A DNA stretch of 64,000 nt from an uncultured Parachlamydiaceae bacterium (GTDB lineage: Bacteria > Chlamydiota > Chlamydiia > Chlamydiales > Parachlamydiaceae), in the NCBI GenBank assembly GCA_963752155.1, contig CAVVXH010000015.1, positions 64,001 to 128,000 on the forward strand. Direction: 5' to 3'. A program made the translations under genes and the position numbers. Position 1 is the stretch's first letter. Every line of letters starts with the position of its first letter. Positions 1 to 53,178 of the stretch are shown in pieces. The notes under the pieces are model-generated. The model saw nothing but the letters and a program-made list of their open reading frames with translations, searched no databases and was not told the DNA's origin.

Positions 1-299
1 TCACGAACTATTGCTATCGTCTCGTCTATATTCTTCTCAATTCGGAGTGCATTTAAAGTTCTGTGCATTAAAATACGAGTATTCTTAGCTAGTTTTGGAT
101 TAGAATCTCTGATTCGATCTTTCCAACTATCTAAGGTACTCATTTGTTGATCCGATGAGATCTTATTTAATAATATTTTAAGAGCACATTCCGTAGATTC
201 AAGATCTATATCCCCATCGTTAATGTACCTATCTAAAGCTTTAACAGAATCCTCAGTCACAGGATTGTTAAAAAAATTAGATATTGCATCTGCATGCAT
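1..299 (-). CDS. Array family-1 small membrane protein, 3' end truncated by window edge
   Basis: Not in the ORF track. Reverse strand from ATG at 299 reads MHADAISNFFNNPVTEDSVKALDRYINDGDIDLESTECALKILLNKISSDQQMSTLDSWKDRIRDSNPK..., near-identical to 981..1412. Preceded by the shared GGAGG leader. Confidence 0.85.
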   Translation of the reverse strand, partial: MHADAISNFFNNPVTEDSVKALDRYINDGDIDLESTECALKILLNKISSDQQMSTLDSWKDRIRDSNPKLAKNTRILMHRTLNALRIEKNIDETIAIVR

Positions 300-417
300 A
301 AAAAGCCTCCATATATTGAAATTTTTGCGTCAACTTACTCAAAACTCTATAAACTCTATTGAATCGAGATTCCACCTACTCGTCCAAACCTCATTAAGTC
401 TAGAACTATATTTTTAA

Positions 418-861
418 TTACTTTGTCGAAAATCTCTGATCATAGAGATAAGATGCCCCGCATACGAAAAACAAAAAAAATACTACTAAGCGGCCGACTT
501 TTATTATAGTCGCATTCATTACTTCATTACTTCTTATTATACCTTTTGCATGAGCTACTACTTTACGAACTATTGCTCTCGTCTCGTCTATCTTCTTCTC
601 AAATCGGATTGCATCTAAAGCTCTGTACATTAATTCACAAGTCTCTATAGTTGGTTTTGGATTAGAATCTCTGATTCGACCTGTCCAACTCTCTAGAGTA
701 TTCACTCCTTGATTCAATGGGATCGGTTTTAATAATAATTCAAGAGCAGATTGTATAGATTTACTATCCATATTCTTTTCTTGAATGTAACTATCTAAAG
801 CACGAACAGAATCCTCAGTCACAGGATTGTTAAAAAAATTAAATATTGCATCTGCATTCAC
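418..861 (-). CDS. Array family-1 protein with single C-terminal TM segment (Inc/effector-like, function unknown)
   Basis: ORF with shared DAI.NFFNNPVT N-terminus and hydrophobic VVFFLFFV tail; GGAGG RBS upstream. Confidence 0.85.
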   Translation of the reverse strand: MNADAIFNFFNNPVTEDSVRALDSYIQEKNMDSKSIQSALELLLKPIPLNQGVNTLESWTGRIRDSNPKPTIETCELMYRALDAIRFEKKIDETRAIVRKVVAHAKGIIRSNEVMNATIIKVGRLVVFFLFFVCGASYLYDQRFSTK

Positions 862-980
862 GAAAAGCCTCCATATATTGATAATTTTTGCGTCAACTTA
901 CTCAAAACTCTATAAACTCTATTGAATCGAGATTCCACCTACTCGTCCAAACCTCATTAAGTCTAGAACTATATTTTTAA

Positions 981-1412
981 TTACCTTGTCGAAAATCTCT
1001 GATCAAAGAGATAAGATGCCCCGCATACGAAAAACAAAAAAAATACTACTAAGCCTCCGACTTTTATTATAGTCGCATTCATTGCTAAATTACTTTTTAT
1101 TATATCATTTGTAGCATTTGTGTGATTACTTATTTCTGTTATATTCTTCTCAATTCGGATTGCATTTAAAGCTGTGTACATTAAAAAACGAGTATCCTTA
1201 GCTGGTTTTGGATTAGAATCTCTGATTCGATCTTTCCAACTATCTAAGGTACTCATTTGTTGATCCGATGAGATCTTATTTAATAATATTTTAAGAGCAC
1301 ATTCCGTAGATTCAAGATCTATATCCCCATCGTTAATGTACCTATCTAAAGCTTTAACAGAATCCCCGGTCACCAGGTTGTTAAAGAAATTATATATTGC
1401 ATCTGCATGCAT
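981..1412 (-). CDS. Array family-1 protein with C-terminal TM segment
   Basis: Paralogue of neighbours; same leader and RBS. Confidence 0.85.
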   Translation of the reverse strand: MHADAIYNFFNNLVTGDSVKALDRYINDGDIDLESTECALKILLNKISSDQQMSTLDSWKDRIRDSNPKPAKDTRFLMYTALNAIRIEKNITEISNHTNATNDIIKSNLAMNATIIKVGGLVVFFLFFVCGASYLFDQRFSTR

Positions 1413-1460
1413 AAAAAGCCTCCATATATTGATAATTTTTACGTCAACTTACTCAAAACT

Positions 1461-1976
1461 CTATTGAATCGAGATTCCACCTACTCGTCCAAACCTCATT
1501 AGGACTAGATCTATATTCTTAATTGCATTGTCGAAAATCCTGATCATAAACCCTTTGGATTTCGAGATAACATGCCCCGCATATGCAACACACAAAAAAA
1601 ATGCTACTAAGCCCGCGACTTTTATTATAATCGCATTCATTGCTAAATTACTTCTTATTATACCATCTATATGAGCTCTTGTTTCACGAGTTATTGCTAA
1701 CGTCTCTTCTGAACTTTTCTCAATTCGGAGTGCATTTAAAGTTGTGTGCATTAAATTACGAGTATACTTAACTGGTTTTGGATTAGAATCTCTGATTCGA
1801 TCTTTCCAACTCTTTAAGGTACTCGTTTGTTGATCCGAGGAGATCTGATTTAATAATATTTTAAGAGCAGATTCCAATTGATCCGTATCCTTGCCTTCAA
1901 CGTACCCATCTAAAGCTTTAACAGAATCCTCGGTCACAGGGTTGTTAAAGAAATTATATATTGCATCTGCATTCAC
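1461..1976 (-). CDS. Array family-1 protein, TM plus long tail variant
   Basis: Paralogue; tail ...MRFGRVGGISIQ. Confidence 0.85.
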   Translation of the reverse strand: MNADAIYNFFNNPVTEDSVKALDGYVEGKDTDQLESALKILLNQISSDQQTSTLKSWKDRIRDSNPKPVKYTRNLMHTTLNALRIEKSSEETLAITRETRAHIDGIIRSNLAMNAIIIKVAGLVAFFLCVAYAGHVISKSKGFMIRIFDNAIKNIDLVLMRFGRVGGISIQ

Positions 1977-2033
1977 GAAAAGCCTCCATATATTGATAAT
2001 TTTTGCGTCAACTTACTCAAAACTCTATAAACT

Positions 2034-2549
2034 CTATTGAATCGAGATTCCACCTACTCGTCCAAACCTCATTAAGTCTAGAACTATATTTTTAATTACC
2101 TTGTCGAAAATCCTGATCATAACCCCTTTGGATTTCGAGATAACATAACCCGCATATGTAACAGAAAAAAAAAATGCTACTAAGCCCCCGACTTTTATTA
2201 TAGTCGCATTCATTACTTCATTACTTTTTATTATACCTTTTACATGAGCTGCTGCTTCATGAGCTACTGCATCCGCCTTGTCTGACCTTTTCCCAAGTTG
2301 GATTGCACTTATAGCTGTGTACATTGAATTACGAATCTTCGCAACTGGTTGTGGATTAGAATCTGTGATTCGATCTTCCCAACTCTTTAAGGTACTCGTT
2401 TGTTGATCCGATGAGATCTGATTTAATAATATTCTAAAAGCAAATTCCAATTGTTTCGTATCCTTGCCTTTAATGTACCCCTCTAAAGCTTTAACAGAAT
2501 CCTCGGTCACAGGGTTGTTAAAGAAATTATATATTGCATCTACATTCAC
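2034..2549 (-). CDS. Array family-1 protein, TM plus long tail variant
   Basis: Paralogue; same leader. Confidence 0.85.
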   Translation of the reverse strand: MNVDAIYNFFNNPVTEDSVKALEGYIKGKDTKQLEFAFRILLNQISSDQQTSTLKSWEDRITDSNPQPVAKIRNSMYTAISAIQLGKRSDKADAVAHEAAAHVKGIIKSNEVMNATIIKVGGLVAFFFSVTYAGYVISKSKGVMIRIFDKVIKNIVLDLMRFGRVGGISIQ

Positions 2550-2658
2550 GAAAAGCCTCCATATATTGATAATTTTTGCGTTAACTTACTCAAAACTTTA
2601 TTGAATTAAGATTCCACCAGCCGTCCAAATTAAGCCTAAATCTATATTTTCAATTACC

Positions 2659-3159
2659 TTATCTAAGGTCCTGATTATAAGGTTTGCGTAATAGGCATGC
2701 CCAAGAGACGAAATACAAAAAAAATGCTACGAAGGTTACAACTTTTAATGAAGTCGCCCTAGTTATGACATTTCTTTTTGTTACATCTGTTGTTGTGTTA
2801 TCCACCTTTGTCTCTAGCTCTGTTATTTTTTTCTCTAACAGATTTCTCCTTATACGTTCTTTTGCAAGCATAGCACCCTTTACAAGCTCTTTTCGTGATT
2901 CACTGCTTATACTCGGATTGTTACTTAACTTTATGATCCAACCATTGATAACTTCCTTCTGGTTAGAATTTTCTCCCAACTGTTTGGCAAGATTTTCAAA
3001 ATCTGAAATAATTATGGCTAAATCATTTTGTTCAACATAGTCAGCGATGCCCAGAGCATTGACAACCATATCTTTTTCTTCAATATCGCTAGCGACGTGC
3101 TGAGTATTAACAGATGAGTAGTCAAGTAGTTTTCCTAATAGTTGTTGCAAAGGTTGCAT
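2659..3159 (-). CDS. Array family-2 protein (MQP.QQLL N-terminus, coiled coil, C-terminal TM)
   Basis: Paralogous to 6267..6773 and 10966..11427; shares the KVV..VAFF TM module with family 1; AAGGAG RBS. Confidence 0.85.
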   Translation of the reverse strand: MQPLQQLLGKLLDYSSVNTQHVASDIEEKDMVVNALGIADYVEQNDLAIIISDFENLAKQLGENSNQKEVINGWIIKLSNNPSISSESRKELVKGAMLAKERIRRNLLEKKITELETKVDNTTTDVTKRNVITRATSLKVVTFVAFFLYFVSWACLLRKPYNQDLR

Positions 3160-3714
3160 AAAAATCTCCTTTGATGATTATTTTCTTTGGAAAAATTTGT
3201 AACACTGCATGCCTACGCATTATTGCGTTCCATATACATCCATATTATTATTTTTTCTAATGATAACAGAAGGCAATTTTTTTTTCAACAGTTATGTTAA
3301 AGCAAAGTGTTTCTGGCTGGAACAAGAAGTGTCATAGGAATAGGTATATGGAACAAAATGAGCCTAGAAGCAAAGATAGCTGCAACCACCTGTGGTATTG
3401 GGTGTCTTGCTTGGGCGTAAACTTATCTGTGCTAACGACCCCTTGCGCAATTTATTCATCGAAGATTGGCGCAGAGCTAGGTGTACAGAACTATTCAAAG
3501 CAGCTACAAAAAGATAAATAGAAAATAAAACAGGCCAATTTTTTAGTTCATTATTGTGAGCTCTTCATTGAATTTACAAATTTGATACAATGTACAAATT
3601 TGCTGGTGTGGTTAAAATTAAGCAGAAAATGGGGTCACTATTCTATTTAGTCCCCATTTGCAGCAAATGGGGACTAACTGTATAGCCACAGTATTTCTTC
3701 AACAAATGCGCTTT

Positions 3715-4428
3715 TTAGATCTTGGTTTTTTCTCCTGAAGCAAAATTGCAAACCCCTTCTAAATCTACTATAGCTTTCCCTACTCCCTGTCGAGCTGCAA
3801 CCACAGCAGAACCTACAATACTTCCTGTAGCAGAGCCACCATCTCCTGTAGCAGGGCCTACACCTCCTATTGTGAACGGAATAGTCGGTATTGACAAATT
3901 CGCCCGTTGGATCCAGGTTTTTTCTCCTATGGCACGATTGCCAACCTCTTCTACACCTACGATAGCTCCTTCTACCCCAAGCCCACAGGCAGCTCCTTGT
4001 CCAACTGCAGCAAAAGTAAAGCTACCCACCGCCAGAGGAAATGCAATAATTCCTGTTATGATTGAAGCAATCGCCGTTGTGCCAAGTATCGTTCTGGCAG
4101 TAGTCTGTGACAATGATTCCATCTTTAATTCAGCATTTTGCGCTACTAGATTCGCCAAGAATAAACCCTTCTCAAATCGGAGTGCATCTAAAGCGCTGTA
4201 CATTAATTCACAAGTCTTTGGTTTTGGATTAGAATCTCTGATTCGACCTGTCCAACTCTCTAGAGTATTCACTCCTTGATTCAATGGGATCGGTTTTAAT
4301 AATAATTCAAGAGCAGATTTTATAGATTTACTATCCATATTCTTTTCTTGAATGTAACTATCTAAAGCACGAACAGAATCCCCGGTCACAGGGTTGTTAA
4401 AGAAATTATATATTGCATCTGCTTGCAT
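3715..4428 (-). CDS. Array family-1 protein with long Gly/Ala-rich hydrophobic C-terminal module (Inc-like or glycine-zipper)
   Basis: Family-1 N-terminus fused to a ~45 aa hydrophobic stretch containing GSFTFAAVGQGAACGLGV. Confidence 0.85.
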   Translation of the reverse strand: MQADAIYNFFNNPVTGDSVRALDSYIQEKNMDSKSIKSALELLLKPIPLNQGVNTLESWTGRIRDSNPKPKTCELMYSALDALRFEKGLFLANLVAQNAELKMESLSQTTARTILGTTAIASIITGIIAFPLAVGSFTFAAVGQGAACGLGVEGAIVGVEEVGNRAIGEKTWIQRANLSIPTIPFTIGGVGPATGDGGSATGSIVGSAVVAARQGVGKAIVDLEGVCNFASGEKTKI

Positions 4429-4468
4429 AAAAAGCCTCCATATATTGATAATTTTTGCGTTAACTTAC

Positions 4469-5008
4469 TCAAAACTCTATTGAATCGAGATTCCACCAGA
4501 TTCCACCTACCCGTCCAAACCTCATTAGGTCTAGATCTATATTTTTAATTACCTTGTCGAAAATCCTGATTATAAACCCTTTGGATTTCGAGATAACATA
4601 ACCCGCATACGTAACAGAAAAAAAAAATGCTACTAAGCCCCCGATTTTAATTATAGTCGCATTCATTACTTCATTACTTCTTATTAAACCATCTATATGA
4701 GCGTCTGCTTCATGAGCTCCTGCTTTCGCTTCGTCTATATTCTTCTCAAATCGGAGTGCATCTAAAGCTCTGTACATTAATTCACAAGTCTCTATAGTTG
4801 GTTTTGGATTAGAATCTCTGATTCGACCTGTCCAACTCTCTAGAGTATTCACTCCTTGATTCAATGGGATCGGTTTTAATAATAATTCAAGAGCAGATTG
4901 TATAGATTTACTATCCATTTTCTTTTCTTGAATGTAACTATCTAAAGCACGAACAGAATCCTCAGTCACAGGATTGTTAAAAAAATTAGATATTACATCT
5001 GCTTGCAT
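4469..5008 (-). CDS. Array family-1 protein, TM plus long tail variant
   Basis: Paralogue; tail extended by a short micro-duplication (TTCCACCAGATTCCACC near 4491). Confidence 0.85.
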   Translation of the reverse strand: MQADVISNFFNNPVTEDSVRALDSYIQEKKMDSKSIQSALELLLKPIPLNQGVNTLESWTGRIRDSNPKPTIETCELMYRALDALRFEKNIDEAKAGAHEADAHIDGLIRSNEVMNATIIKIGGLVAFFFSVTYAGYVISKSKGFIIRIFDKVIKNIDLDLMRFGRVGGIWWNLDSIEF

Positions 5009-5121
5009 AAAAAGCCTCCAAATATTGATAATTTTTGCGTTAACTTACTCAAAACTCTATTGAATCGAGATTCGAGATTCCACCTACCCATCCAAACCTC
5101 ATTAGATCTAGATCTATATTC

Positions 5122-5226
5122 AATTTGTAACATAACATAGGATCATCTCAATAGGGGTGAATATGTTTAATTTCCTCTTAACACACGAGTGTTATATTCC
5201 CCTACTTTTTCGATTGCCTTACAATA
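5122..5226 (-). pseudogene. Remnant copy of the 3' end of the patatin gene plus downstream spacer
   Basis: Closely matches 6809..6905 (gatcatctcaat...atatgtttaatttcctcttaa.acacg.gtgttata.tc.c.tactttttcgattgc). Confidence 0.75.
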
Positions 5227-5618
5227 AGTACAATATGGACAAAGCATTGCTGGCCCTTTCAATTTTTTCCCAATAACGGCTCCGATATCTGCATGCTTTC
5301 GCCTGTGTGCCTACGCATTATTGCGTTCCATATCCATCCATATTATTATTTAAGTAAATAATAACAGGAGGCAATGTTTCAATCAATATTTTTTTCGCCC
5401 GTTTTTCGCCCGTTCGCCCGTTTTTCAACAGCTTCAACAGTTTTTCAACAGTTATATTCGATCTTAAGTGATTCAATATGAATTACATAATATAATATCA
5501 CTTACCAAAGGAGATTCAAGCCGGGAGGATAATGTAAACCAAACGATACATTTACAAACGAAGACTCTCGGTACTCGCCTCTCAACAAAGATAAATCTGG
5601 AAAAACTTTTATATACTC

Positions 5619-6164
5619 CTATTTCTTTAACGCCTCTTTAATCAAGCAGTTATTTCCTCTAGCAGAATTGTAAACTGTTTCTCCGAATATCCAGGTTCCA
5701 CCTACCCCAAGCCCACAGGCAGCTCCTTGTACAACCGCAGCAAAAGTAAAGCTACCCGCCACCACAGGACCTGCAACAGCCCCTCCTATGGCAGGAAGAG
5801 TCCCCATTAAAACAAGCTGCGTTCGAGCATTTGACTTTAACGCTGATTGGGCATCTAATCTAGCTTGAAGAGCTTGTTCATTCGCGAACTTTATAGACTT
5901 GTCAAGTCGGAGTGCATCTAAAGCTCTGTACATTAATTCACAAGTATCCCTAGCTGGTTTTGGATTAGAATTTATGATTCGACCTGTCCAACTCTCTAAA
6001 GTAGTCACTACTTGATTCAATGGGATCGGTTTTAATAATAATTCAAGAGCAGATTGTATAGTTTTACTACACAGAGTCCTGTCTTGAATGTAACTATCTA
6101 AAGCACGAACAGACTCCTCAGTCACAGGATTGTTAAAAAAATTAGATATTGCATCTGCATGCAT
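5619..6164 (-). CDS. Array family-1 protein with Gly/Ala-rich hydrophobic C-terminal module
   Basis: Family-1 N-terminus; GSFTFAAVVQGAACGLGVGG. Confidence 0.85.
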   Translation of the reverse strand: MHADAISNFFNNPVTEESVRALDSYIQDRTLCSKTIQSALELLLKPIPLNQVVTTLESWTGRIINSNPKPARDTCELMYRALDALRLDKSIKFANEQALQARLDAQSALKSNARTQLVLMGTLPAIGGAVAGPVVAGSFTFAAVVQGAACGLGVGGTWIFGETVYNSARGNNCLIKEALKK

Positions 6165-6266
6165 AAAAAGCCTCCATATATTGATAATTTTTGCGTTAAC
6201 TTACTCAAAACTCTATTGAATTGAGATTCCACCTAACCGTCCAAACCTCATTAGGTCTAGATCTTC

Positions 6267-6773
6267 TTAATTGCCATGCCGAAAATCCTGATCATAAATC
6301 CCTTGGATTGCGAGATAGGCGTACCCAGCATACGTAACACAAAAAAAAAATGCTACTAAGCCTACGACTTTTAATGTAGTCGCATTCATTGCGATATTTG
6401 TTTTTGTTATATCATTTGTCATATTTGCATTTTTACTTATTTCTGTTAATTTTTCATTTAACTGAATTTGTTTTTTTGCAAACTTAGCACCCTTTATAAG
6501 CTCATCTCGTGATTTAATACTTATACTCTGACTGTTACGTAACTTTGTGATGCAACCATTGATAACCTCTTCCTGGTTGGAATTTTTCCCCGCCTGCTTA
6601 GCAAGAGCTTCAAAATCTGAACCAATTAAGGCTGTACCATTTTGTTCAACATAGTCAGCGATAGCCTGGGCATTGATAACTATATCTTTTTCTTCAACAT
6701 CGCTAGCGACATCATGAGTATTAACAGATGAGTTGCCAAATAGTTTCCATAATAGTTGTTGTGTTGGTTGCAT
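6267..6773 (-). CDS. Array family-2 protein
   Basis: Start moved to ATG 6773 (MQPTQQLL) by homology to 3159 and the AAGGAG RBS. Confidence 0.85.
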   Translation of the reverse strand: MQPTQQLLWKLFGNSSVNTHDVASDVEEKDIVINAQAIADYVEQNGTALIGSDFEALAKQAGKNSNQEEVINGCITKLRNSQSISIKSRDELIKGAKFAKKQIQLNEKLTEISKNANMTNDITKTNIAMNATTLKVVGLVAFFFCVTYAGYAYLAIQGIYDQDFRHGN

Positions 6774-6846
6774 AAAATCTCCTTTGATAATTATTTTCTT
6801 TGTAAAAATTTGTAACATAGGGTCATCTCAATGGAGATGAATATGT

Positions 6847-9800
6847 TTAATTTCCTCTTAATACACGGGTGTTATACTCGCTTACTTTTTCGATTGCTTC
6901 ACAATTGGAAAATTTAGATAATTCTATAGCCATTTTAAATAATAAATCAATAATAGGGAATGCAAGATGGGTATTACCATAATGTTTTTGGCAAAGCATG
7001 AGCGATTGATTAAAAAACTCTTCTGCTTTTTTGAAGACGATCAGAAAATTTTCTTGGTGGAAAGGTATCTGAATCTCTCGTACATCAAGCGAGAAGGGGA
7101 CATTACTATTTAAAAACAACTTGCGAAGTTGCCCTAAGGCCTTGGGATATGCTTCATGAAAAGAAGAAACTCTTTCATAAATACGGCTAACTTCGCTAAA
7201 TGAACGGTTCAATTTTTTTTGAAGATCAATTTCTAAATGATTTTTCAAAGGATTTCTCTTTATTGTATGCGCTTGTGATAGCCATAAAATGGCTCCATCC
7301 CAAGTACGATTGTCATGTTCTTCAAACAATTCTCCCTGCCGACAGGCTAAATGAAATGCTTTTACATAACTATTAGATAGATCAATCCCACCTGATTGAT
7401 TGATTACATCTTTCAGTCTTGTAGCTAAGGGAATAGAAAAAGTTTTTGTACTGGAATCGTAATCAACAAAACCATTGTTGCAAAAAATACGCAACCCCTT
7501 ACGAGATTCTTTTTGCAACTTGATCCCGCACAATTTTTCTTCGAATTCAAAATAATCTTTAACCCATTTTTCTGGAATACGTAACGGATTCAAGTGCAAA
7601 CAGGTGAGAAGCAGATTAAAAACGATCGGGTTTGTTTCTTTCAGATTTGCTAAACGGAGGTCCCAACGCTGCCCTAGACTTAATACATCTCTACAAGGTG
7701 CATTCAAAGGACGAAATAAATCCTCAATTGCTTTCTTCCCTGAAGTAATCAAACCCTGCTGTCCTTCTAGTGATAAATCAAAATCTAAAAGCGTTACACC
7801 ATTATTCGATATTTTGGCCACTCGACTTATAGCTTGCAGACTTTGATGCTCCTTACGGATCAGCTGTTCAGAATCATAATAGACCTGGATTAATCCTCCA
7901 AGAAGATCTCTTAAACTATCTATATTTTTATTTGGTACCATGAGATTCTGCTGAGGGGAGGTTAAACTTAAACCCAAAGTTCTTCGATTAAACACTGGGC
8001 CATCCTCTTCACCTAAAGTTAGCCCTCTATACCGTTTGTGGTCAAAGGCTTCGATCGGTAAATTATAAAGTAAACCTCCATCAATGAAAGAACCATGTTC
8101 CTCTGCTTTTATTCTTTGACCTCTTGTTTTAAAATGAAGAATATGGGGTTTAAATACTAAAGGAATAGACATCGAACACCGTACAGCATCAGAGATAATA
8201 AGATTATCCCATTTTTCTTCTTCTGAATTGAAACGATAAATCCCTAATTCAGTTCCAATATTAATAGAAAACAGATGCAAATGTTTGTAAGGTTTTCCCT
8301 TTTCAATTAATTTTCTTAATTCACCAAAGGTACAATATGGAACCCCAGTTTTCATTGCAATCACTTCTTCTATCCATTCTCTGAATACTTCTCCTGCACA
8401 AATTCCAGTAGTCATTTTAATGCCAGATAGTAAATCACCATTATTTCCAAAGATTTTCCCTTTAGCTTTATCAGCTATTATCTTTCCTGCTAAAAGTGGA
8501 ACATTTTTTATATCCGATAGCCGGCCTGACAAATTATTTATTAATTCTTTTAATTTCTGCAAAGTAATGGGGCCATCACCTAGACGACTTTTTATGATAG
8601 GATAGTTGAGAAGATTGGTTACTGAACTAGGCAAAGAAACATCTAAAAGAAGCTCCACCAAAGAATTCTCTTGGAGTAACTTTTGGATTTCAGCAGCGGT
8701 ATGGCCACAGGAAAGAAAAGCTGCCATGATAGCACCAGCTGAAGTTCCAGCCACTCTCCGAAGCATCTTTAAAGCACCTAGCCGTTCCAGTTCACCAATT
8801 GCACCGATATGTGCAATCCCGGTTGGACCTCCCCCTTGAATGACTAAATTGATAGGTGGAAAATAAGCAAAATTAATGGCTCCCTTCTCTTTGGATGTGA
8901 CTTCATCAGCAATTCCATGAAGAAAAATTTGAACTTCCCTATTTAGAGCCAAAGCGTGAGGCTTCTCCCGATGTCTATTTTCAATTTGCAACAGATCGGG
9001 ATCAAGAATGATTAAGAGTTGAATGATTTCCATCACACCTTTTCTGGCTGCTAAATGTAAAGCAGTATTGCCCTCATCATCAACACTCCTGAGGTTTGCT
9101 CCCCTTTGATAAAGCAATAACAATGCACTGTAAGAACCTTTTGAAGCCGCTAAGAGAAGGGGTGTTTTTCCCTCAGAATTTCTATCCTCAAGAAGAGGAT
9201 GAGTATGATCATGGTACTCTGCCAAAAGGTGATCCAACATCTGCAACTGATCAAATTGAATCGCGACATGGAGGAGATTGCCAGCTGATTGAAGTATATG
9301 ATTCCATACCACACCACCCTTACAAGCAGCTAGAACGTCAAAGCACTGTATCTTCCCCTAACTATAGCCCATAAGAAAGGAGGCAAAGTGAGATCATTCT
9401 TCGAAGAAAAAGCTGTTTTAATAGCTTCACTGCAATTTACTAATGCATGAACCATAGAATCATTACTTGACTGAATAGCTACATGTAAGCACGTTCTCCC
9501 ATCAAGATCAAGCTGCTTTATAGACACAGTATTCTTTAAAACTGGAACAAGTTCAGGTCGATTGATTTTAGCAATAGCATGAAGAACTTGATTAAAATTT
9601 CCAGAAGATAACCAATGCCGCAAATCTTGACGTACAACGATATCTTCTACGATCTCTTTATTTAAACGTTCTAGGATAGTAAATAGAATGTTATGTCCTT
9701 TACGATCACAAAGCCCGATCAGAACATCCCCAGCTTTTTCGATTTTTTTCCAATTACGATTCCGACATGCTGTAACCACAGCCTCAAAGCAAAGTTCTCG

Positions 9801-9914
9801 TTGATTTTCAGGTCCACATTGAAGTTCAAAAATTTCAATAAGCTTAGGTAAGTTGGCATCCTCTACATCTATCTGCATCCCTTCTTCTAAGCGCCCATGT
9901 GCTATTGGTTCCAT
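6847..9914 (-). CDS. Ankyrin-repeat patatin-like phospholipase (putative secreted effector), split by one frameshift near 9355
   Basis: Ankyrin motifs (GRTCLHVAI, GKTPLLLAA, GNTALHLAA) and patatin motifs GGG..G, GTSAG, DGG. ORFs 9330..9914 and 6847..9312 join into an intact ankyrin repeat (PPFLWAIVRG/KIQCFDVL) if one base is added. Confidence 0.88.
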
Positions 9915-10161
9915 ATTCTACCTTAATATTATTGGTGTTTAAACGGATAATGGTAGAAGGCCTTTTTTCAGTCAATATTTTTTTTTGTAAGCTCTCAAAA
10001 TTCAAATGTTGAGCTCAACCAATATCTTTGCTACTTCGAAAAGCTATTTATTTTTCTTGCTCCGACTTCCATACAACCATGCAGAAAAGACAGCAATGAT
10101 CTCTAGAACGTCTTGAGAAGGCTGTTTCTAACCCCCATCAAAAATAAATTTGGGGAAATTT

Positions 10162-10746
10162 TTATGAACCTCTATTTCTTAACAAATTCGCCTCTTGGAT
10201 CAAGGTACTATTCCCTCTAGCAAGATTATAAGCTTCTTCTCCAGCTATTAAAGTGACTCCTGTCCCAAACCCATAGAAAGCTCCCTGCCCAACTGCAGCA
10301 AGAGTAAAACCACTTGCGGCCATCAAAGAACCTGCAATACTTCCTCCTACAGTAGGAAGAGCCAAGGTTAAAGCAAGCTGCATTCTAGCATTGGACTGTA
10401 ACGCTGATTGTGCATCTGAACTGGCTTGAAGAGCTCTTGCATTCGCAAGGTTTGTTCTGTTCATTAAATCCATTACAACTAAATTTCGTTGAAGTGCATC
10501 TAAAGCTATGTGCATCGGATTACGAGTATTCATGGCTGGTTTTGGATTACAATTTTTGATTCGATCTGACCAACTATTTAAGATACTCGCTTGTTGATTC
10601 AATGGGATCTGATTGATTAATCTTTCAAGAGCACATCGTACAGACTCAGTATCCATATCCTTTTCTAGAATGTATCTATCTAAAATTCGAACTGAATCTT
10701 GAGTCACAGGATTGTTAAAAAAATTATATATTGCATCTTCATCCAT
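10162..10746 (-). CDS. Array family-1 protein with Gly/Ala-rich hydrophobic C-terminal module
   Basis: Start moved to ATG 10746 (MDEDAIYNFFNNPVT); homologous to 5619..6164. Confidence 0.85.
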   Translation of the reverse strand: MDEDAIYNFFNNPVTQDSVRILDRYILEKDMDTESVRCALERLINQIPLNQQASILNSWSDRIKNCNPKPAMNTRNPMHIALDALQRNLVVMDLMNRTNLANARALQASSDAQSALQSNARMQLALTLALPTVGGSIAGSLMAASGFTLAAVGQGAFYGFGTGVTLIAGEEAYNLARGNSTLIQEANLLRNRGS

Positions 10747-10776
10747 AAAAGTCTCCATATGTTGATGGTTTTTGGG

Positions 10777-10906
10777 CAGCAATTCCCGCTAAACTTTCGT
10801 GCCCGCGTGCGCGCGTGCGTGCCCGTGCCCGAAAAATTTCGTAGATTTTACTAATTTTCGAGCACGGGCACGCAGGCACGAGCACGAAAATTAGCAGGAA
10901 TTGCTG
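10777..10906. mobile_element. MITE-like element, family E (CAGCAATTCC...GGAATTGCTG)
   Basis: Terminal inverted repeats with internal GTGCCC/GGGCAC repeats; flanked by tggtttttggg (10766-10776) and tggtttttgcg (10907-10917); interrupts the conserved array leader. Confidence 0.8.
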
Positions 10907-10965
10907 TGGTTTTTGCGTTTCGATTCATCAAAAAAATACAATCTATGGTCGCCCCTGGTATAGGT

Positions 10966-11427
10966 CTATAGATTTAGTTTCCTCACCAAAAATCGATCAT
11001 AAGTCGATTGGATGATCAAATAGACATATCCAACAAACGCAACACAAAAAAAAAGTGCTGGCATACTTATAACTTTTAATGGAGAAGTATTTATCCTGAA
11101 ATTTCTTTTTGTTACATCTGTTATGTTATTTATATTTCGATCTAATTCTTTTAAATTTTCATTCAACAGTTCTTCGCTTAAATGTTGGTTTGCAACCATT
11201 GCAGCCTTCATAAGTTCTCTTCGTAATTCAACACTTATGCTCTGATCGTCGCGTAACTTCGCAATCCAGCGCTCGATAATCCATTGATGATTGGAATTTT
11301 TCCCCCACATCTTAGCAAGATTTTCAAGATCTGTAGCAATTGAAACTGTATCTTTTTGTTCAACATAACTCACAAGGGCATTAGTATCGACAGATGAGTT
11401 ACCAAATAATTGCCCTAATAGCTGCAT
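10966..11427 (-). CDS. Array family-2 protein (diverged)
   Basis: Start at ATG 11427 (MQLLGQLFGNSSV) with AAGGAG RBS; homologous to 6267..6773. Confidence 0.8.
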   Translation of the reverse strand: MQLLGQLFGNSSVDTNALVSYVEQKDTVSIATDLENLAKMWGKNSNHQWIIERWIAKLRDDQSISVELRRELMKAAMVANQHLSEELLNENLKELDRNINNITDVTKRNFRINTSPLKVISMPALFFCVAFVGYVYLIIQSTYDRFLVRKLNL

Positions 11428-11765
11428 AAAAACTCCTTTGATGATTATTATTTTTCGAACAATTTGGGAGGACAGGATCATCTCAATGGAGATATATATA
11501 TTTAATTTTTTCTTCACTCTTTCGCAAAATGAATAATAGATAGAAAGCAATTTTTCAGTCAATATTTTTTTTCAACATGATGAATTGCTCTAAGAGATAG
11601 CAAATTTTTTTCCGCACATGAGTCCTAGTGAGATTAAGAGCAGTTTTGTAGCTCATAGATAACCCAATTGGGCCATTCGCATGATGCGGAATACTAAGAA
11701 AAATTAAACGCAAAGCGAAACAGTTGCCTGCGGCGCCCCCTATTGGGAAATAACAAATTTTTAAA

Positions 11766-12222
11766 GCGCCTTGCCATTGGTGCCTGACCTGATATTCTGA
11801 CATTTGACTACAATGATGACATAACCTCCCAGGAGGGCAAATGTCAGAATGTCAGGTCTGGAACCAAGGCCAGAACGTTATCTCTCAGAATTAAGTATCT
11901 TGTTATTAATTGAAAACGACGCTTTTTTCAGTTGCGTAAATCTTGGGGTAAGGGACTGTGCAATAATAACTTGTATGATTGGGCAACGCCAAAGCTCCCG
12001 TGGTTAAGCGATCGAAAGTGACCCCATATTATAATATGGGGTCACTTTCGATCGCTTAACCACGGGGCTTTGGCGCAGCCCAATCGTGCAAGTTATTGTT
12101 GCACAGTCCCTAACGTTCCAGCTTTGGTTCCAGACCTGACATTCTGACATTTGCCCTTTAGGAAGCAATGTTATCGCATCGGCAAATGTCAGAATATCAG
12201 GTCAGGCACCAATGGCAGGCGC
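11766..12222. repeat. Composite nested inverted-repeat element, family A copy 1
   Basis: Arms gcgccttgccattggtgcctgacctgatattctgacatttg... and reverse complement; each arm has an internal hairpin. Confidence 0.9.
11952..12110. mobile_element. MITE-like element, family B (GGGACTGTGCAA...TTGCACAGTCCC), 159 bp near-perfect hairpin
   Basis: TAA directly on both sides; nested in family A copy 1. Confidence 0.8.
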
Positions 12223-12310: not shown

Positions 12311-13603
12311 CTACAAAATATTTTCTTCCAAAGGAGAATACATTTGCAAAATTGACTTCATCTCTCTTTGATTTACAAGGGCCAAATCCTTAACTAAATG
12401 ATCAAATTCAGCCTTTGCAATTTCAAATAATCCAATATGTTTGATATGCAAGTCCAATTTTTTAGCTACATTTTTAGCTTCTGTAAAGTTATATTGAGAA
12501 TCAATTTTAGCAATTTCAATTAACATTCTAACTTTCTTAAGTTCATCACTAACTGCTGAAACTGCTTTTCTGGCTCTAATAAGCTCCTCCGGAGCAATTT
12601 TAGCAACTTCAATTAACATTTCCGCTTTACACTCTATATCTTTCACAGCTTCAATCGTCCTTATAATCGCTATAAGATTATTCTTTATACGCTCTTTAAG
12701 ATTAGACTGAGAATCAATTTTAAACATTTTAATTGTTGCTAAAATTCTTTTATCGTTATTTCCAATTTTTTTGAAAATCTCTACAATTTCCGTAAGATCG
12801 TGTTGAGGGTCAACAATGGCAATTTCAAGCAATGCTTGGACTTTAAAATAAGAGTCAACAATAAATTGAGCAGTCGTTTTAGCTTCAACTAATTTATCTC
12901 GAACTTCTATTTTTACAATTTCAAGCAATGCTTCATCTCTTTTAAGACTTATTTCAATAGTATGAGCTGTCTCTTTAGCGCTAGCAAGATCATATTGCGC
13001 CTCTTCAACTGCAATTCTACATAAAATATAATCCTTTAGGCTTTTAGTTTTATTATCTGCAGCAACTTTTTTAGCGATTGTAAAGTCATGTCGAGGATCA
13101 ACTCTAGCAATTGTACATAACGCAATTGCTTGTACATTATAATCAGTACAAGTTTTAATAACCTCATAAAATGTTGCAAGATTATTAAAATCAAATTCAT
13201 TAATTTCAAGCAGTGTTAAATTTTTATAAATGGGATTTTTAAAAGTTTCAGCAGTTATTCTTGCATCCAAATAACTATAGGGGGCTTCGAGTTTAAATAT
13301 CTCATATAACGCTTTTTCGTGATAACCATGAGGAGCTTTTTGAGCAGCTAACCGAGCTTCAGCAAAACACTTAACAAATAACATTCGAGTTTTAATTTTG
13401 AAATCATTATCAAATAATTGTTTCCAAGATTTATTTAAGCTAACCATTATGACAAATGAAAAATTGTTCAATTCATTAGTTATCCCCTCAATAATGTTAA
13501 AATTTGAATGATAAACATTTTTAAATAATTCATCCGAGTTAGTTTCAAATTTTTCTGCTGCATTAATTTTCACGTCATTAGCACTTAAACTTAACATTTC
13601 CAA
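12311..13603 (-). CDS. Helical-repeat protein with possible degenerate F-box (effector-like)
   Basis: Repeats such as ALLEIA..DP.HD.T; paralogous to 55588..57459. Confidence 0.75.
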   Translation of the reverse strand: MEMLSLSANDVKINAAEKFETNSDELFKNVYHSNFNIIEGITNELNNFSFVIMVSLNKSWKQLFDNDFKIKTRMLFVKCFAEARLAAQKAPHGYHEKALYEIFKLEAPYSYLDARITAETFKNPIYKNLTLLEINEFDFNNLATFYEVIKTCTDYNVQAIALCTIARVDPRHDFTIAKKVAADNKTKSLKDYILCRIAVEEAQYDLASAKETAHTIEISLKRDEALLEIVKIEVRDKLVEAKTTAQFIVDSYFKVQALLEIAIVDPQHDLTEIVEIFKKIGNNDKRILATIKMFKIDSQSNLKERIKNNLIAIIRTIEAVKDIECKAEMLIEVAKIAPEELIRARKAVSAVSDELKKVRMLIEIAKIDSQYNFTEAKNVAKKLDLHIKHIGLFEIAKAEFDHLVKDLALVNQREMKSILQMYSPLEENIL

Positions 13604-13777: not shown

Positions 13778-14126
13778 GCGCCTTGCCATTGGTGCCTGAC
13801 CTGATATTCTGACATTTGCCGATGCGATAACATTGCTTCCTTAAAGGGCAAATGTCAGAATGTCAGGTCTGGAACCAAGGCCAGAACATTACCCCCAAAA
13901 GGACAGCAAGGACAACAGGAAACGCGGAACAAATCGGTCAATAGAAATTTTCAATATCATTAAGGATGCTTGTTTGCTGTCCTTTTGCTGTCCTTGCTGT
14001 CCTCTGAGAGGTAACGTTCTGGCCTTGGTTCCAGACCTGACATTCTGACATTTGCCCTCCTAGGAGGCTATATCTTCATTTTAGGCAAATGTCAGAATAT
14101 CAGGTCAGGCACCAATGGCAAGGCGC
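13778..14126. repeat. Family A composite inverted repeat, copy 2 (core carries family C 9-mers)
   Basis: Same arms as copy 1; centre aaggacagcaaggacaac...tgctgtccttgctgtcct. Confidence 0.9.
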
Positions 14127-50380: not shown

Positions 50381-51854
50381 TTCACTTTATATCAACAATC
50401 AATGGATTTCAGGAAACGGAACACAGCTAGTTTCCTACAATCCAGCAACTGGAACTCCAGTCTGGGAAGGAACTACAGCAAATGCTGAAGATGTCAATTT
50501 AGCTGTAGAATCTGCTCGAGCAGCATTTCCAAGCTGGTCAGAGACTCGAATAAAAACACGAATAAAATTTCTAAGAAAATTTCAAACGATCTTAGAAAAT
50601 AATAAATTTGAGTTCGCTGAAACGATCTCTTTAGAAAATGGGAAGCCAATATGGGATGCTGCTAACGAGGTCAATTCTATCTTAACTAAAGTCGATATCA
50701 GCATCGATGCCTACGAAATGCGTTGTTTGCATTTAGTCAAAGATGAAAAGGGAAAACACACTGTTTTACGCCATCGTCCACATGGGGTCATCGGTGTATT
50801 TGGTCCTTTTAATTTCCCTGCACACTTGCCAAATGGACATTTTATCCCTGCTCTCCTCGCAGGGAACACAATTGTTTTTAAACCCAGCGATCTAACTCCA
50901 CTCGTTGCAGAAAAAATGATTCGTTTTTGGAAAGAAGCAGGCCTTCCAGCTGGGGTCATCAATTTGCTTCAAGGAGGAGTCGCAACTGGCCAAGCTCTAG
51001 CAAATCATCACAATCTTGACGGCATCTTTTTCACTGGAAGCTGGGCTGTAGGAAAACATTTAACAGAACTTTACAGTCAAAGATCTGGGAAAATTCTTGC
51101 TCTGGAAATGGGTGGCAATAATCCCCTAATTTTTACCGAAGTCGACAATCTCAAAGCTGCTGCGTATACTACCATTCAATCTGCTTATTTGACTTCGGGT
51201 CAGAGGTGCACCTGCGCCCGCAGGCTGATTATTCCAGAGGGTTCCAAAGGTGACGCTTTCATCAACGAGCTTCTTTCCTTGACCAAAAATATTAAAATTG
51301 GACCCTACACAGATTCCCCGCAACCTTTTATGGGCCCATTGATTTCCCCTAATGCAGCAAAGAAGCTTCTAGAGACTCAAGATAAACTGATCGAACAAGG
51401 TGGACGTCCTCTTATGAAAATGTCCGCGCTGAAACAGGGTTCTGCGTTTCTATCGCCTGGTCTCATCGATGTCACAGCAGTAAAAAATCGCAATGACGAG
51501 GAGCATTTTGGGCCATTTTTGCAACTCATTCGCGTAAAAGACTTTCAAGCGGCGCTGCAAGAAGCTAATCAGACTGAATACGGCCTTACGGCGGGCCTTC
51601 TAAGTCGTCATAAAGATGAATTTAATCAGTTTTGCGCTAGCATTAAAGCTGGGATCATAGCATGGAACTCCCCTACAACAAATGTAGCTTCTTCACTTCC
51701 CTTTGGAGGAGTAGGGAAAAGCGGAAATTTCCGACCTACAGCCCTTTATGCCGCAGACTATTGCGCTTATCCTGTAACATATATAGAAAATAGCTCGTTA
51801 GAGCTTCCGGAGACACTTCTCCCCGGAATCCTACCCATAGGAGATTCATCATGA
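50373..51854 (+). CDS. astD: Succinylglutamate-semialdehyde dehydrogenase
   Basis: FGPFNFPAHLPNGH, LALEMGGNNP, GQRCTCARR, YAADYCAYPV. Confidence 0.95.
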   Translation: MANSLYINNQWISGNGTQLVSYNPATGTPVWEGTTANAEDVNLAVESARAAFPSWSETRIKTRIKFLRKFQTILENNKFEFAETISLENGKPIWDAANEVNSILTKVDISIDAYEMRCLHLVKDEKGKHTVLRHRPHGVIGVFGPFNFPAHLPNGHFIPALLAGNTIVFKPSDLTPLVAEKMIRFWKEAGLPAGVINLLQGGVATGQALANHHNLDGIFFTGSWAVGKHLTELYSQRSGKILALEMGGNNPLIFTEVDNLKAAAYTTIQSAYLTSGQRCTCARRLIIPEGSKGDAFINELLSLTKNIKIGPYTDSPQPFMGPLISPNAAKKLLETQDKLIEQGGRPLMKMSALKQGSAFLSPGLIDVTAVKNRNDEEHFGPFLQLIRVKDFQAALQEANQTEYGLTAGLLSRHKDEFNQFCASIKAGIIAWNSPTTNVASSLPFGGVGKSGNFRPTALYAADYCAYPVTYIENSSLELPETLLPGILPIGDSS

Positions 51855-53178
51855 ATGCTGTTGAAGTCAATTTCGATACTTTAGTGGGTCCAACACATAA
51901 TACAAGCGTTATTTCTTTTGGAAATATCGCTTCGCAAACGCGTCACTTGGCTCCTTCAAATCCCAGAGCTGCAGCTCTTCAGGGCCTCGAAAAAATGTTT
52001 TTTCTCGACTCTTTGGGTCTTCGTCAGGGGATTTTTCCACCTCAGAGACGTCCCGATATTCCAACTCTCAGATTGCTAGGCTTTCATGGTACAGATCGAG
52101 AAGTTCTTAAAAGGACTTGGGAACAAAGTCCACTGATATTAATGAGCGTTTGTTCCTCAGCTTCTATGTGGACAGCCAACAGCTCCGTCATTACCCCTTC
52201 ATGTGATAACAAAGATAATCGCGTACATATTACACCTGCGAATTTAAGTAGCAAATTTCACCGATCGATCGAAGCACCACATACAGCAAGAACTTTAAAA
52301 CTAGTTTTTCCCGGAGCCACATTTTGAACACCATCCACCTCTACCCTATGGAAATTACTTCAGCGATGAAGGAACAAGTCAACCATACCTGCTTAGCAAA
52401 ATGCATGGCACACCTGGAGTACACCACTTTGTGTATGGACGCTCTAGCTTCAAAGAGAACTTGCTTGCTCCGAATCGATATCCGGCGCGTCAAGCGCTTG
52501 AAGCGAGTGAATCTGTGGCAAGATTTCACGGCTTAAACCCTTCCGCCGTTTGCTTTGTTCAGCAAAATCCAGAAGCGATAGATGGTGGAGTCTTCCATAA
52601 TGATGTGATTTCTGTCGGCAATAACAATCTATTTCTTTACCACGAAAAGGCCTTTTGCAATAGTGAAAATCATATTAACATCCTCAAAAATGCAGTGAAT
52701 GAAACATGTCAAACTCATCTAATTTGCATCAAAGTCCTTGAAAAGCAAGTTTCACTAAAAGACGCCGTCGAATCTTATCTTTTTAATTCTCAGCTTATTA
52801 CATTGAAAGACAATACCATGATGATCATACCCTATCGAATGCCCAGAAACGACTCCTTCGGTCTTCAAATATTTAACTGAATTAACAGAAGATCCCGACA
52901 ATCCTGTCGGCAGAATCCACTATTTTAACTTGAATGAGAGCATGCTCAGTGGCGGAGGACCTGCATGCTTGCGCATACGCGTCGTCCTGACACAAAATGA
53001 GTTGGCAACTGTCAATCCACGTTTTATGTTTACTAAGAACCTTTATGAGAAATTAGTCGAATGCGTCAATAAACACTATAGAACAGAACTTGTGCCGAAA
53101 GATTTTGCAGACCCTAAATTTTTTGATGAGTTAATGGAGGCTCAGGACGCGATTGAAAGAATCTTCGAAATTCAATAG
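51851..53178 (+). pseudogene. astB: N-succinylarginine dihydrolase, multiply frameshifted (or sequence errors)
   Basis: EVNFD.LVGPTHN, SMWTAN, FHNDVISV, SYLFNSQL, SM..GGGPACLR spread over different frames. Confidence 0.88.

Follow-up and report, generated by a model that had tools for sequence, protein, structure and literature searches.

We identified a tandem array of 12 small, co-oriented genes on the minus strand of the window (the whole 64,000-nucleotide stretch analyzed here), which encodes two families of predicted membrane-anchored proteins, F1 and F2. We read them, at roughly even confidence, as exported binding proteins that are Inc-like though not canonical Incs, are tethered to a membrane and evolve under diversifying selection. 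All results rest on one error-prone assembly, a Parachlamydiaceae-like MAG that is 80% complete. The closest named relatives of a neighboring ABC-F protein come from Parachlamydiaceae.

Extent and growth of the array

An earlier note, made from the letters alone, had listed at least 12 genes, nine of family 1 (DAI.NFFN) and three of family 2 (MQ..LL). All of them were recovered at the same starts (Table 1), and an F2 gene is directly followed by an F1 gene three times, as described there. The near-identical F1 leader was also confirmed: its pattern has eight matches genome-wide, every one inside the array locus, and the ninth leader, before the F1 gene starting at 10746, is diverged and contains a MITE-like repeat with 132 further blastn matches in the genome. 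Two other statements needed correction. Between the first F2-F1 pair and the patatin gene there are a separate head resembling a promoter (9975) and an ankyrin frame of 194 aa (9914-9330), so the one does not run directly into the other. The array was said to run off the left edge, and F1i (start 299) does cross it, but it ends at C15:63868, beyond which only a stub of 22 codons (C15:63750-63818) remains. With its boundary about 250 bp to the left of the window, the array consists of the 12 genes and the stub alone. Elsewhere in the genome, five tandem clusters of small paralogues were found, each with three members, which makes this array of 12 the largest and argues against a chance arrangement. 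Over-expansion during assembly, a concern raised earlier, was ruled out because the copies are too divergent, the longest exact repeat within the array being 162 bp.

Our analysis shows that the locus grew from a unit of promoter, ankyrin-patatin, F2 and F1, and that whole-unit duplications produced four unit heads. These heads are homologous, each with a sigma70-like site, and stumps of the patatin gene are present in units C and D. Six of the nine F1 genes are chimeras with an F1 head and a tail of F2b origin; unequal crossing-over within the long helix joined F1 heads to the F2b anchor. All six chimeric tails match F2b best (72-85% at the DNA level), and none matches a Gly-rich tail. Unequal crossing-over also repeated a block of about 560 bp (tail, spacer and head), and recombination continues to reshuffle the copies, with mosaic F1 heads (recombination test, p = 0.0006). 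A diversity-generating retroelement was rejected, as PF00078 was not detected in the 80%-complete assembly and the changes occur at all base pairs with a tree-like history. The 165-aa flanking gene was likewise rejected as F1 kin (E = 0.88).

Table 1 Features of the array locus in window coordinates
Feature	Position	Strand
Unit A head; sigma70-like site TTGACT-18-TATTAT at 11562-11533	11517..11571	-
F2a, 153 aa; helical head and long helix, then one C-terminal TM	10966..11427	-
Palindromic MITE/REP-like repeat inserted in F2-F1 spacer; 132 matches elsewhere in genome	10775..10960	
F1a, 194 aa; F1 head and Gly/Ala-rich 48-residue uncharged tail; most divergent F1	10162..10746	-
Unit B head; promoter-like site 9975-9947	9930..9984	-
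194-aa ankyrin frame, probably 5' part of patatin gene	9330..9914	-
Ankyrin-patatin, 821 aa; retains GTSAG and DGG; many relatives have a longer C-terminal region	6847..9312	-
F2b, 168 aa; all six chimeric tails match its tail and downstream spacer best	6267..6773	-
F1b, 181 aa; F1 head and 47-residue Gly/Ala-rich uncharged tail	5619..6164	-
Unit C head, promoter-like site 5386-5358, and stump of ankyrin gene start (70% over 116 nt, E 6e-9)	5286..5395	-
Stump of patatin 3' end and F2 upstream region (88% over 93 nt); unit C lost patatin and F2	5133..5225	-
F1c, 179 aa chimera; F1 head and F2b-type TM tail reading on into former spacer	4469..5008	-
F1d, 237 aa; F1 head and Gly-rich tail with internal duplication	3715..4428	-
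81% copy of far-side array boundary sequence (part of 165-aa opposite-strand gene); earlier array end	3342..3698	+
Unit D head, promoter-like site 3288-3260, and short stump of ankyrin gene start	3210..3297	-
F2c, 166 aa	2659..3159	-
F1e, 171 aa chimera; 1 synonymous and 24 non-synonymous changes separate its head from that of F1f	2034..2549	-
F1f, 171 aa chimera	1461..1976	-
F1g, 143 aa chimera, short tail	981..1412	-
F1h, 147 aa chimera; F1c-type head, F1g/F1i-type tail	418..861	-
F1i, 143 aa chimera; last whole array gene; ends 133 bp outside window (C15:63868)	1..299	-

Architecture, relatives and selection

Structure prediction gave five helices plus a long helix for the heads of both families (head pLDDT ~80-95). 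In both models, a continuous helix of 47-51 residues runs from head to anchor, giving the long or coiled-coil helix expected of Inc proteins, and the folded head begins at residue 2-3, so that a disordered N-terminal leader is absent from the predicted proteins. A single uncharged stretch of 16-25 residues, corresponding to one TM, is present in nine of the 12 proteins; a stretch of at least 40 residues is found in F1a (48), F1b (47) and F1d (40). The tails of these three are Gly/Ala-rich and weakly hydrophobic (maximum 19-residue Kyte-Doolittle value 1.5-2.0), and are therefore borderline at best for an Inc bilobed domain. The F1 and F2 N-terminal profiles match each other (P = 7e-4), and each family's profile has the other family as its best non-self match in the genome (E = 0.07 and 0.26). 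F1 and F2 probably form one superfamily with a five-helix head, a long helix and a membrane anchor. The predicted C-terminal anchors and the swapping of heads and tails between F1 and F2 bear out the modular, membrane-anchored family proposed earlier.

The earlier note had not recognized the family, and HMM and structure searches likewise gave no credible match. A length-limited search of 5.77 billion protein clusters returned only the locus's own 9 + 3 proteins, and five matches among 1.84 billion representatives were all the array's own. F1/F2 was found in none of 60 relatives and the F1 head in none of 399 genomes of the order, and pattern scans of metagenomes, GTDB genomes and viral contigs confirmed nothing. 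A joint-profile match in one of 72 family genomes (E = 0.006, inside a 665-aa frame) was taken as chance; an F2-head match in one of the 399 order genomes (E = 7.8e-4), to a 286-aa protein lacking the F2 layout, is within chance for that number. Pfam, NCBIfam, PHROGs and PADLOC contained nothing credible for F1/F2; F2a matched a cyclase model (E = 5e-4 over 78 residues), a match absent for F2b and F2c. Foldseek found no structural relative at E ≤ 0.001, and the best VIA-align matches (Z 6.4, rmsd 3.4, 92 aligned; Z 6.9, rmsd 2.9, 73 aligned) lie in the range of common helical arrangements, so the fold searches show neither a novel nor a differing fold. Type III gatekeeper chains (CopN, BopN, YopN, InvE and SepL) were not accepted as relatives of F2 (Z 5.3-6.2). 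The best ESM Atlas scores, 0.79 for F1b and 0.88 for F2b, were to unnamed 138-164-aa clusters and serve as leads only. A literature search mostly of papers outside subscription found none on the locus. Within the collections searched, a species-restricted family is the best explanation.

The claim of active diversification was supported by both the mosaic copies and the dN/dS of the F1 head, which lay between 1.4 and 3.1. Gene-wide estimates for all nine copies were 1.39-2.1 (p = 0.14, 0.013 and 0.002), the excess over 1 not being significant under GY+F3X4. Without F1a, which was excluded after pairwise values were inspected, they were 2.2-3.1 (p = 0.004, 3e-4 and 4e-5); five of the six fits were significant. 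A tree-free count for the head gave 22 synonymous versus 114 non-synonymous steps (ratio 1.5-1.9; p = 0.057 and 0.002). Neither of the two tail estimates was significant (1.44, p = 0.10; 1.63, p = 0.19), and the value for F2 (0.84) was not significantly above 1. Control values were 0.73, 0.39 and 0.45 for three other paralogue triplets (C2 and C7, also among the five three-member clusters, were omitted as dispersed or fragmentary), and 0.05 for orthologues of the neighboring ABC-F gene. Differences between copies are scattered single bases rather than frameshift runs, and hydrophobic columns of the F1 head are less variable (p = 0.004). These results show that selection favors amino-acid change in the F1 head, with hydrophobic core positions varying less. 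Fast surface change combined with part-swapping points to an arms race with some partner.

The ankyrin-patatin gene and competing explanations

The 821-aa gene matched PF01734 at 94.6 bits (cut-off 27.7) and is an ordinary member of the chlamydial ankyrin-patatin(-NB-ARC-TPR) proteins, with 31-46% identity over the patatin region to 51 other proteins, of which the named ones are mostly chlamydial. Unlike them, it is split from its N-terminal ankyrins and has a shortened C-terminus. It retains GTSAG and DGG, but its glycine-rich loop is off-consensus at one conserved position, so patatin activity is not assured. The 194-aa ankyrin frame weakly matches the N-terminus of a 1345-aa relative, and the frame change between it and the patatin gene may be real or an assembly error. 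The array had been described as built around this gene. The gene was indeed part of the duplicated unit, but only its ends survive in two later copies. The expected linkage also failed, since the other ankyrin-patatin loci examined lack an F1/F2 neighbor: none was found in four long regions (L002-L004 in the same genome and the 19-kb L034 in a same-genus genome), and seven further loci, with 1.5-kb flanks only, are weak tests in a set that is small overall. The patatin gene looks more like a passenger than the array core, and the basis of a functional link is position only. It may be a co-located effector that was copied along with the unit and then lost from later units.

F1 and F2 could instead serve the ankyrin-patatin as variant inhibitors, chaperones or membrane adaptors, in an immunity-type array that lost its toxin while the partners diversified. 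Orphan-immunity arrays in polymorphic toxin systems retain partner genes after toxin loss, and the present locus resembles them in having one toxin-like gene, many diverging small tandem paralogues and toxin stumps in the repeats. It differs from them in that no interbacterial delivery system was identified, the secretion genes covered being those of type III. In addition, the patatin gene shares a unit and a common promoter-like head with F2 and F1, and F2b starts 74 bp after its stop. The linkage is, however, not conserved at the four long regions, the patatin family is widespread in chlamydiae (52 matches) whereas F1/F2 were found in one genome, and with a single patatin copy there is no evident changing target that would account for dN/dS above 1, which leaves this explanation rather unlikely. 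We regard as similarly doubtful a two-component pore, suggested by analogy with YaxAB/ClyA and anticipated in the earlier note, in which F2, with its one TM, and the hairpin-type F1, with 40-48 Gly/Ala-rich residues, would oligomerize in a membrane as homologous partners. The three F2-F1 pairs, two of them with a hairpin-type F1, the homologous heads and the glycine-zipper-like tails fit this idea. Against it, the six chimeras have lost the hairpin, which is at odds with an obligate hairpin subunit; unit D, with its single F2 and five chimeras, has no hairpin gene; and the selection signal falls on the soluble head. Known two-part alpha pore-formers are about twice the size of the 143-237-aa array proteins. 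Structure searches bearing on this type returned middling, generic helical matches only, which do not argue against it.

If the proteins were not exported, they might be tail-anchored in the inner membrane, with cytoplasmic heads sensing or blocking phage proteins and the patatin possibly acting as effector. The lack of an N-terminal leader and the single C-terminal TM in nine of 12 proteins are compatible with this, and patatins are effectors in anti-phage systems, although the N-terminal matches here are weak and far below cut-off. F1/F2 have no credible PADLOC or PHROGs match, and elsewhere in the genome the ankyrin-patatin family lies amid eukaryote-like, effector-type genes; we consider this explanation unlikely. 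A mostly non-adaptive origin, with a recombination-prone orphan locus drifting under relaxed selection and partly distorted by assembly error, appears quite improbable. Drift has been proposed for other Parachlamydiaceae expansions (PMC4209131), the genome is repeat-rich by blastn, and the essential genes rpoB and clpB are shattered in the assembly. Random change would, however, give a dN/dS near 1 and not 2-3, all 12 frames are open with leaders intact and differ by scattered single bases, the neighboring ABC-F gene has a dN/dS of 0.05, and 27 of 28 conserved genes tested are unsplit. Mimicry of SNAREs, with a helical N-domain, coiled coil and C-terminal TM interfering with vesicle fusion, is suggested by architecture alone and seems very improbable: the Pfam SNARE model (PF05739) gave six weak genome matches at E ≤ 10, none in the array locus, and the stalk is shorter than the SNARE motif of about 60 residues. 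Just as speculative as the drift explanation would be a protist symbiont with a repertoire, driven by recombination and under strong diversifying selection, of receptor or inhibitor heads that are tethered to a membrane and exchangeable between two anchor types. The heads would recognize giant-virus or co-infecting-bacterium proteins in the shared host cell, or proteins of the host's cell-autonomous defense, and would recruit or restrain an ankyrin-patatin at that membrane. Parachlamydia blocks giant-virus factory maturation (PMC9457554), an effect to which we found no link at the array locus.

Proposed Inc-like export and significance

As exported, Inc-like binding proteins, F1 and F2 would leave the bacterium most likely by type III secretion, and the C-terminal anchor would insert into a host membrane, either that of the vacuole (inclusion) or another. 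Facing the host cytosol on a helical stalk, the five-helix head would then bind a fast-changing partner, possibly a host protein of defense or trafficking, or one from a co-infecting virus or bacterium. The organism is, as presumed earlier, a chlamydia with type III secretion genes: sctJ, sctR, sctU and sctV were found (sctU and sctV split in the assembly). In the 80%-complete assembly, searches for sctN and its flanks gave no match; both same-genus genomes contain sctN. By a crude effector score, the N-terminal composition falls in the 66th-91st percentile of 1661 ORFs, which is only mildly effector-like.

Incs are defined by a bilobed hydrophobic domain of at least 40 residues (PMC3048545, PMC3290821), and are often orphan, clustered, coiled-coil-rich, tandem-expanded and sometimes positively selected (PMC3048545, PMC3290821, PMC3126793). 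The array resembles the Inc expansions of C. pneumoniae, C. caviae and C. felis (PMC3048545, PMC3290821) in its small, orphan, clustered genes for helical or coiled-coil proteins with a hydrophobic segment, in its occurrence in a chlamydia that has type III secretion genes, and in positive selection, as on some Incs (PMC3126793). The Inc repertoire proposed earlier holds for clustering and long helices, but its 40-60 aa hydrophobic hallmark is present in three of 12 proteins at most; the other nine have a single C-terminal TM in place of two TM helices joined by a short loop. Unlike Incs, the array proteins fold from the N-terminus and swap heads and anchors between two paralogous families, and no sequence links Incs to F1/F2. 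Since Waddlia Wimp1 is located at the inclusion membrane despite having no bilobed domain (PMC6925127), the missing domain does not exclude such a location for F1/F2.

The PEX/NEX F-box and BTB expansions of Parachlamydiaceae, as described in PMC4209131, are similar lineage-specific tandem arrays of up to 13 members in the same bacterial family, with birth and death and remnants. Those proteins carry recognizable eukaryote-like domains, whereas the array has no known domain. The expanded families in that study showed purifying selection (M0 dN/dS of 0.29-0.63, against 1.4-3.1 here) and little recombination, none of it convincing, whereas the array copies are clearly mosaic; the array thus departs from them in both respects. 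The value of the finding is limited by the fact that the family was found in one uncultured, error-prone genome and by the fact that orphan tandem membrane-protein arrays are common in chlamydiae. The hosts of Parachlamydiaceae are mostly protists, which have no antibodies, so a gene-wide dN/dS of about 2-3 marks molecular conflict with another side. The twelve natural variants of an 85-residue soluble head provide a ready-made bait set for a partner search.

Extent and history of the array

We examined a minus-strand array of nine F1 genes (F1a-F1i, marked by DAI.NFFN) and three F2 genes (F2a-F2c, marked by MQ..LL) in the assembly G000 (3.13 Mb, 22 contigs, 80% complete), in which the window corresponds to C15:64001-128000. 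The 12 genes, their leader and the three F2-F1 pairs were all found as the earlier note had described them. That note had the array still running off the left edge, but it does not go far: its last gene ends just outside the window, and beyond it lie a stub of 22 codons and then a 165-aa gene on the opposite strand. No further F1 or F2 copies were found elsewhere in the assembly, and the array is its largest tandem cluster of small paralogues (12 members vs. five clusters of 3). Over-expansion by the assembler was ruled out, since the longest exact repeat within the array is 162 bp; the array is real.

The 165-aa orphan contains two Gly/Ala-rich hydrophobic stretches, showed no kinship with F1 by BLASTP, and has a partial copy inside the array. 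A 430-aa orphan with ~32-residue helical repeats, which matched nothing in the protein family collections searched, is flanked by inverted copies of a repeat with >400 blastn matches in the genome, and together they could form a composite mobile unit. On the same contig lie two tandem genes, presumably nucleoside-diphosphate-kinase-like by motif, of which the second begins with a hydrophobic leader; two ndk paralogues of Waddlia are reportedly the subject of a published paper.

The nearest named relatives of the ABC-F gene belong to Parachlamydiaceae (88% and 83%), and the window carries F-box, LRR and TPR genes, typical content of Parachlamydiaceae-type genomes. Regional indel errors split atpA, sctU and sctV; of 28 conserved genes probed with sister-genome proteins, 27 are in a single frame. 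Because rpoB, rpoC and clpB are fragmented, parts of the assembly are poorly polished and apparent pseudogenes in it need read support; the broken astB and AAA_14/DUF4143 genes are either pseudogenes or assembly errors.

Coordinates of the features discussed
Feature	Position	Strand
Unit heads	window 11562, 9975, 5386, 3288	
T8-T10 runs	window 11054, 6350, 4627, 2724, 2174, 1601, 1043, 480	-
Last array gene	window 299 to C15:63868	-
165-aa orphan	G000:C15:63109-63606	+
Partial copy of the 165-aa gene	window 3294-3521	+
430-aa orphan	window 12311-13603	-
Inverted repeat copies	window 12111-12217, 13784-13891	
Broken astB and AAA_14/DUF4143 genes	window 51851-52880 and 53290-54226	
Fragmented rpoB, rpoC, clpB	G000:C6:5861-13814; C10:232134-234733	
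Tandem kinase-like pair	G000:C15:50983-51924 (L001:4983-5924)	
Ankyrin-patatin region L002	G000:C2:152000-170000	
Five hydrophobic genes	G010:C100, L038:4309-6582	

Four homologous unit heads each carry a sigma70-like site; the scan found 46 sites overall against 39 expected, so that the homologous position of the four sites alone is informative. In unit B, an ankyrin-patatin gene sits between the unit head and F2b. Unit C retains ~45 first and ~55 last bases of the patatin gene, unit D a short stump of its start, and unit A essentially nothing. The stumps in units C and D indicate that the unit which was duplicated included the patatin gene, and that at least two copies lost it but kept F1/F2 genes; in unit A it was either lost or never there. 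The patatin family is widespread (52 matches at E up to 1e-40, self included) and present in 6 of 72 genomes of the bacterial family. The protein keeps GTSAG and DGG and differs from its relatives at one conserved glycine-loop position. Between it and its first ankyrins the reading frame changes (between window 9330 and 9312), which may reflect an error in the assembly. F1 and F2 were absent beside ankyrin-patatin genes in three other G000 regions and one 19-kb same-genus region, so the association is local and historical. The proposal that the array is built around the patatin fits the duplicated unit, but not the copies that lost it or the other patatin loci read. The closest genome has different genes upstream of ABC-F-valS, and its contig with the other flank is too short for comparison. 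In region L002, the ankyrin-patatin gene, with a P-loop region and then a TPR frame, lies in head-to-head orientation to genes for ParA and DnaG/DnaB-like replication proteins (labelled from motifs by eye), a neighbourhood that suggests an integrated mobile element.

Heads and exchangeable anchors

Structure models predicted F1 and F2 to be alike, with an ~85-residue five-helix head continuing into a 47-51-residue helix; pLDDT was below 50 in the Gly-rich tail. The head profiles aligned over 62 columns (27% identity, P 7e-4, probability 27), and each was the other's top non-self match among six-frame ORFs of the whole genome (E 0.07 and 0.26). The two heads are likely, though unproven, to share a common origin.

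Two anchors were distinguished: one TM of 16-25 residues close to the C-terminus in three F2 and six F1 proteins, and a 40-48-residue uncharged Gly/Ala-rich stretch in F1a, F1b and F1d. For all six single-TM F1 genes, the best match of the tail was to F2b with its spacer (72-85% at the DNA level); a Gly-rich tail was matched by none of them. The six genes are thus chimeras of an F1 head and an F2b-type tail. A ~560-bp tail-spacer-head block was duplicated repeatedly within the array, and the leader common to F1 genes is the F2-to-F1 spacer copied with every repeat. In F1c, F1e and F1f, a common frame change lengthens the tail into sequence that is spacer after F2b. T8-T10 runs occur in the TM-coding part of 9/9 single-TM genes, one just beyond the window edge. 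A/T runs of 9 or more number six in 11.9 kb, compared with ~1 expected at the genome rate, the runs being homologous and hence non-independent. Slippage at the T runs could provide a putative on/off switch for the membrane anchor.

Diversification of the F1 head

In the F1 head, dN exceeded dS in 28 of 36 non-independent pairwise comparisons, and the F1e-F1f pair shows 24 non-synonymous changes to 1 synonymous change, almost all of them single-base (Fisher p 0.02). One-ratio codon models of the nine copies gave dN/dS of 1.39, about 2.1 and 2.0 (p 0.14, 0.013 and 0.002 vs. 1), rising to 2.2, 2.7 and 3.1 (p 0.004, 3e-4 and 4e-5) without F1a, an exclusion decided after the data had been seen. A tree-free step count, robust to recombination, yielded 22 synonymous and 114 non-synonymous steps for nine copies, a ratio of 1.5 (p 0.057) with kappa set to 1 and of 1.9 (p 0.002) with kappa set to 2.8; leaving out F1a, the counts were 15 and 95 (p 0.017 and 0.0006). 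The same procedure gave control values of 0.73, 0.39 and 0.45 for three of five other paralogue triplets and 0.05 for ABC-F. For F2, dN/dS was 0.84; for the tails it was 1.44 and 1.63, both non-significant. The F1 copies are mosaic (49 informative sites; neighbour incompatibility 0.22 vs. 0.33 overall, p 0.0006). Hydrophobic columns are less variable than polar ones (1.85 vs. 2.52 residues per column, p 0.004), and the fold is conserved while its likely surface varies. For PEX/NEX expansions in Parachlamydiaceae, dN/dS of 0.29-0.63 and little recombination have been published (PMC4209131).

Possible roles

This layout, in which a stable, small head sits on a helical stalk whose membrane anchor can be exchanged and diversification falls on the head, would suit a membrane-tethered binder engaged in a conflict. 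Chlamydiae usually enter such conflicts by exporting proteins through type III secretion into the membrane of the inclusion, and an exported, Inc-like role for F1/F2 is the leading reading, at about even odds. The genes sctJ, R, U and V are present; sctN with its flanks was not found in this 80%-complete assembly and is present in both same-genus genomes. Counting against export, the models contain no disordered N-terminal leader and 9 of 12 proteins have one TM only. Incs are often orphans encoded in clusters, rich in coiled coils and expanded in tandem (PMC3048545, PMC3290821); positive selection acts on some (PMC3126793), and one Waddlia inclusion-membrane protein is entirely without the bilobed domain (PMC6925127). 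The array may be Inc-like in its function, but we do not class it as an Inc array because the defining hairpin is missing in most members.

What can be said of how the locus evolved (duplication of units, formation of chimeras, mosaic copies and an excess of amino-acid change) is much firmer than any functional reading. Bacterial-side phage defence seems unlikely. A role as patatin partners is improbable, as is a two-part pore. We give little credence to drift or artefact, or to the boldest reading, a variable repertoire acting with the patatin against a giant virus, co-infecting bacterium or host defence protein; SNARE mimicry is very improbable. Parachlamydia blocks giant-virus factories (PMC9457554), an effect that shows that such conflicts occur and has no tie to the F1/F2 locus.

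Homologue and family searches bore out the earlier note's failure to recognise the family. Lineage-specific tandem arrays are common among chlamydiae; another Parachlamydiaceae genome (G010) has five adjacent 144-151-aa hydrophobic genes of Inc-like look, apparently unrelated to F1/F2. The present array stands out in combining the exchange of heads and anchors between two paralogous families with a dN/dS that exceeds 1 over the whole gene.
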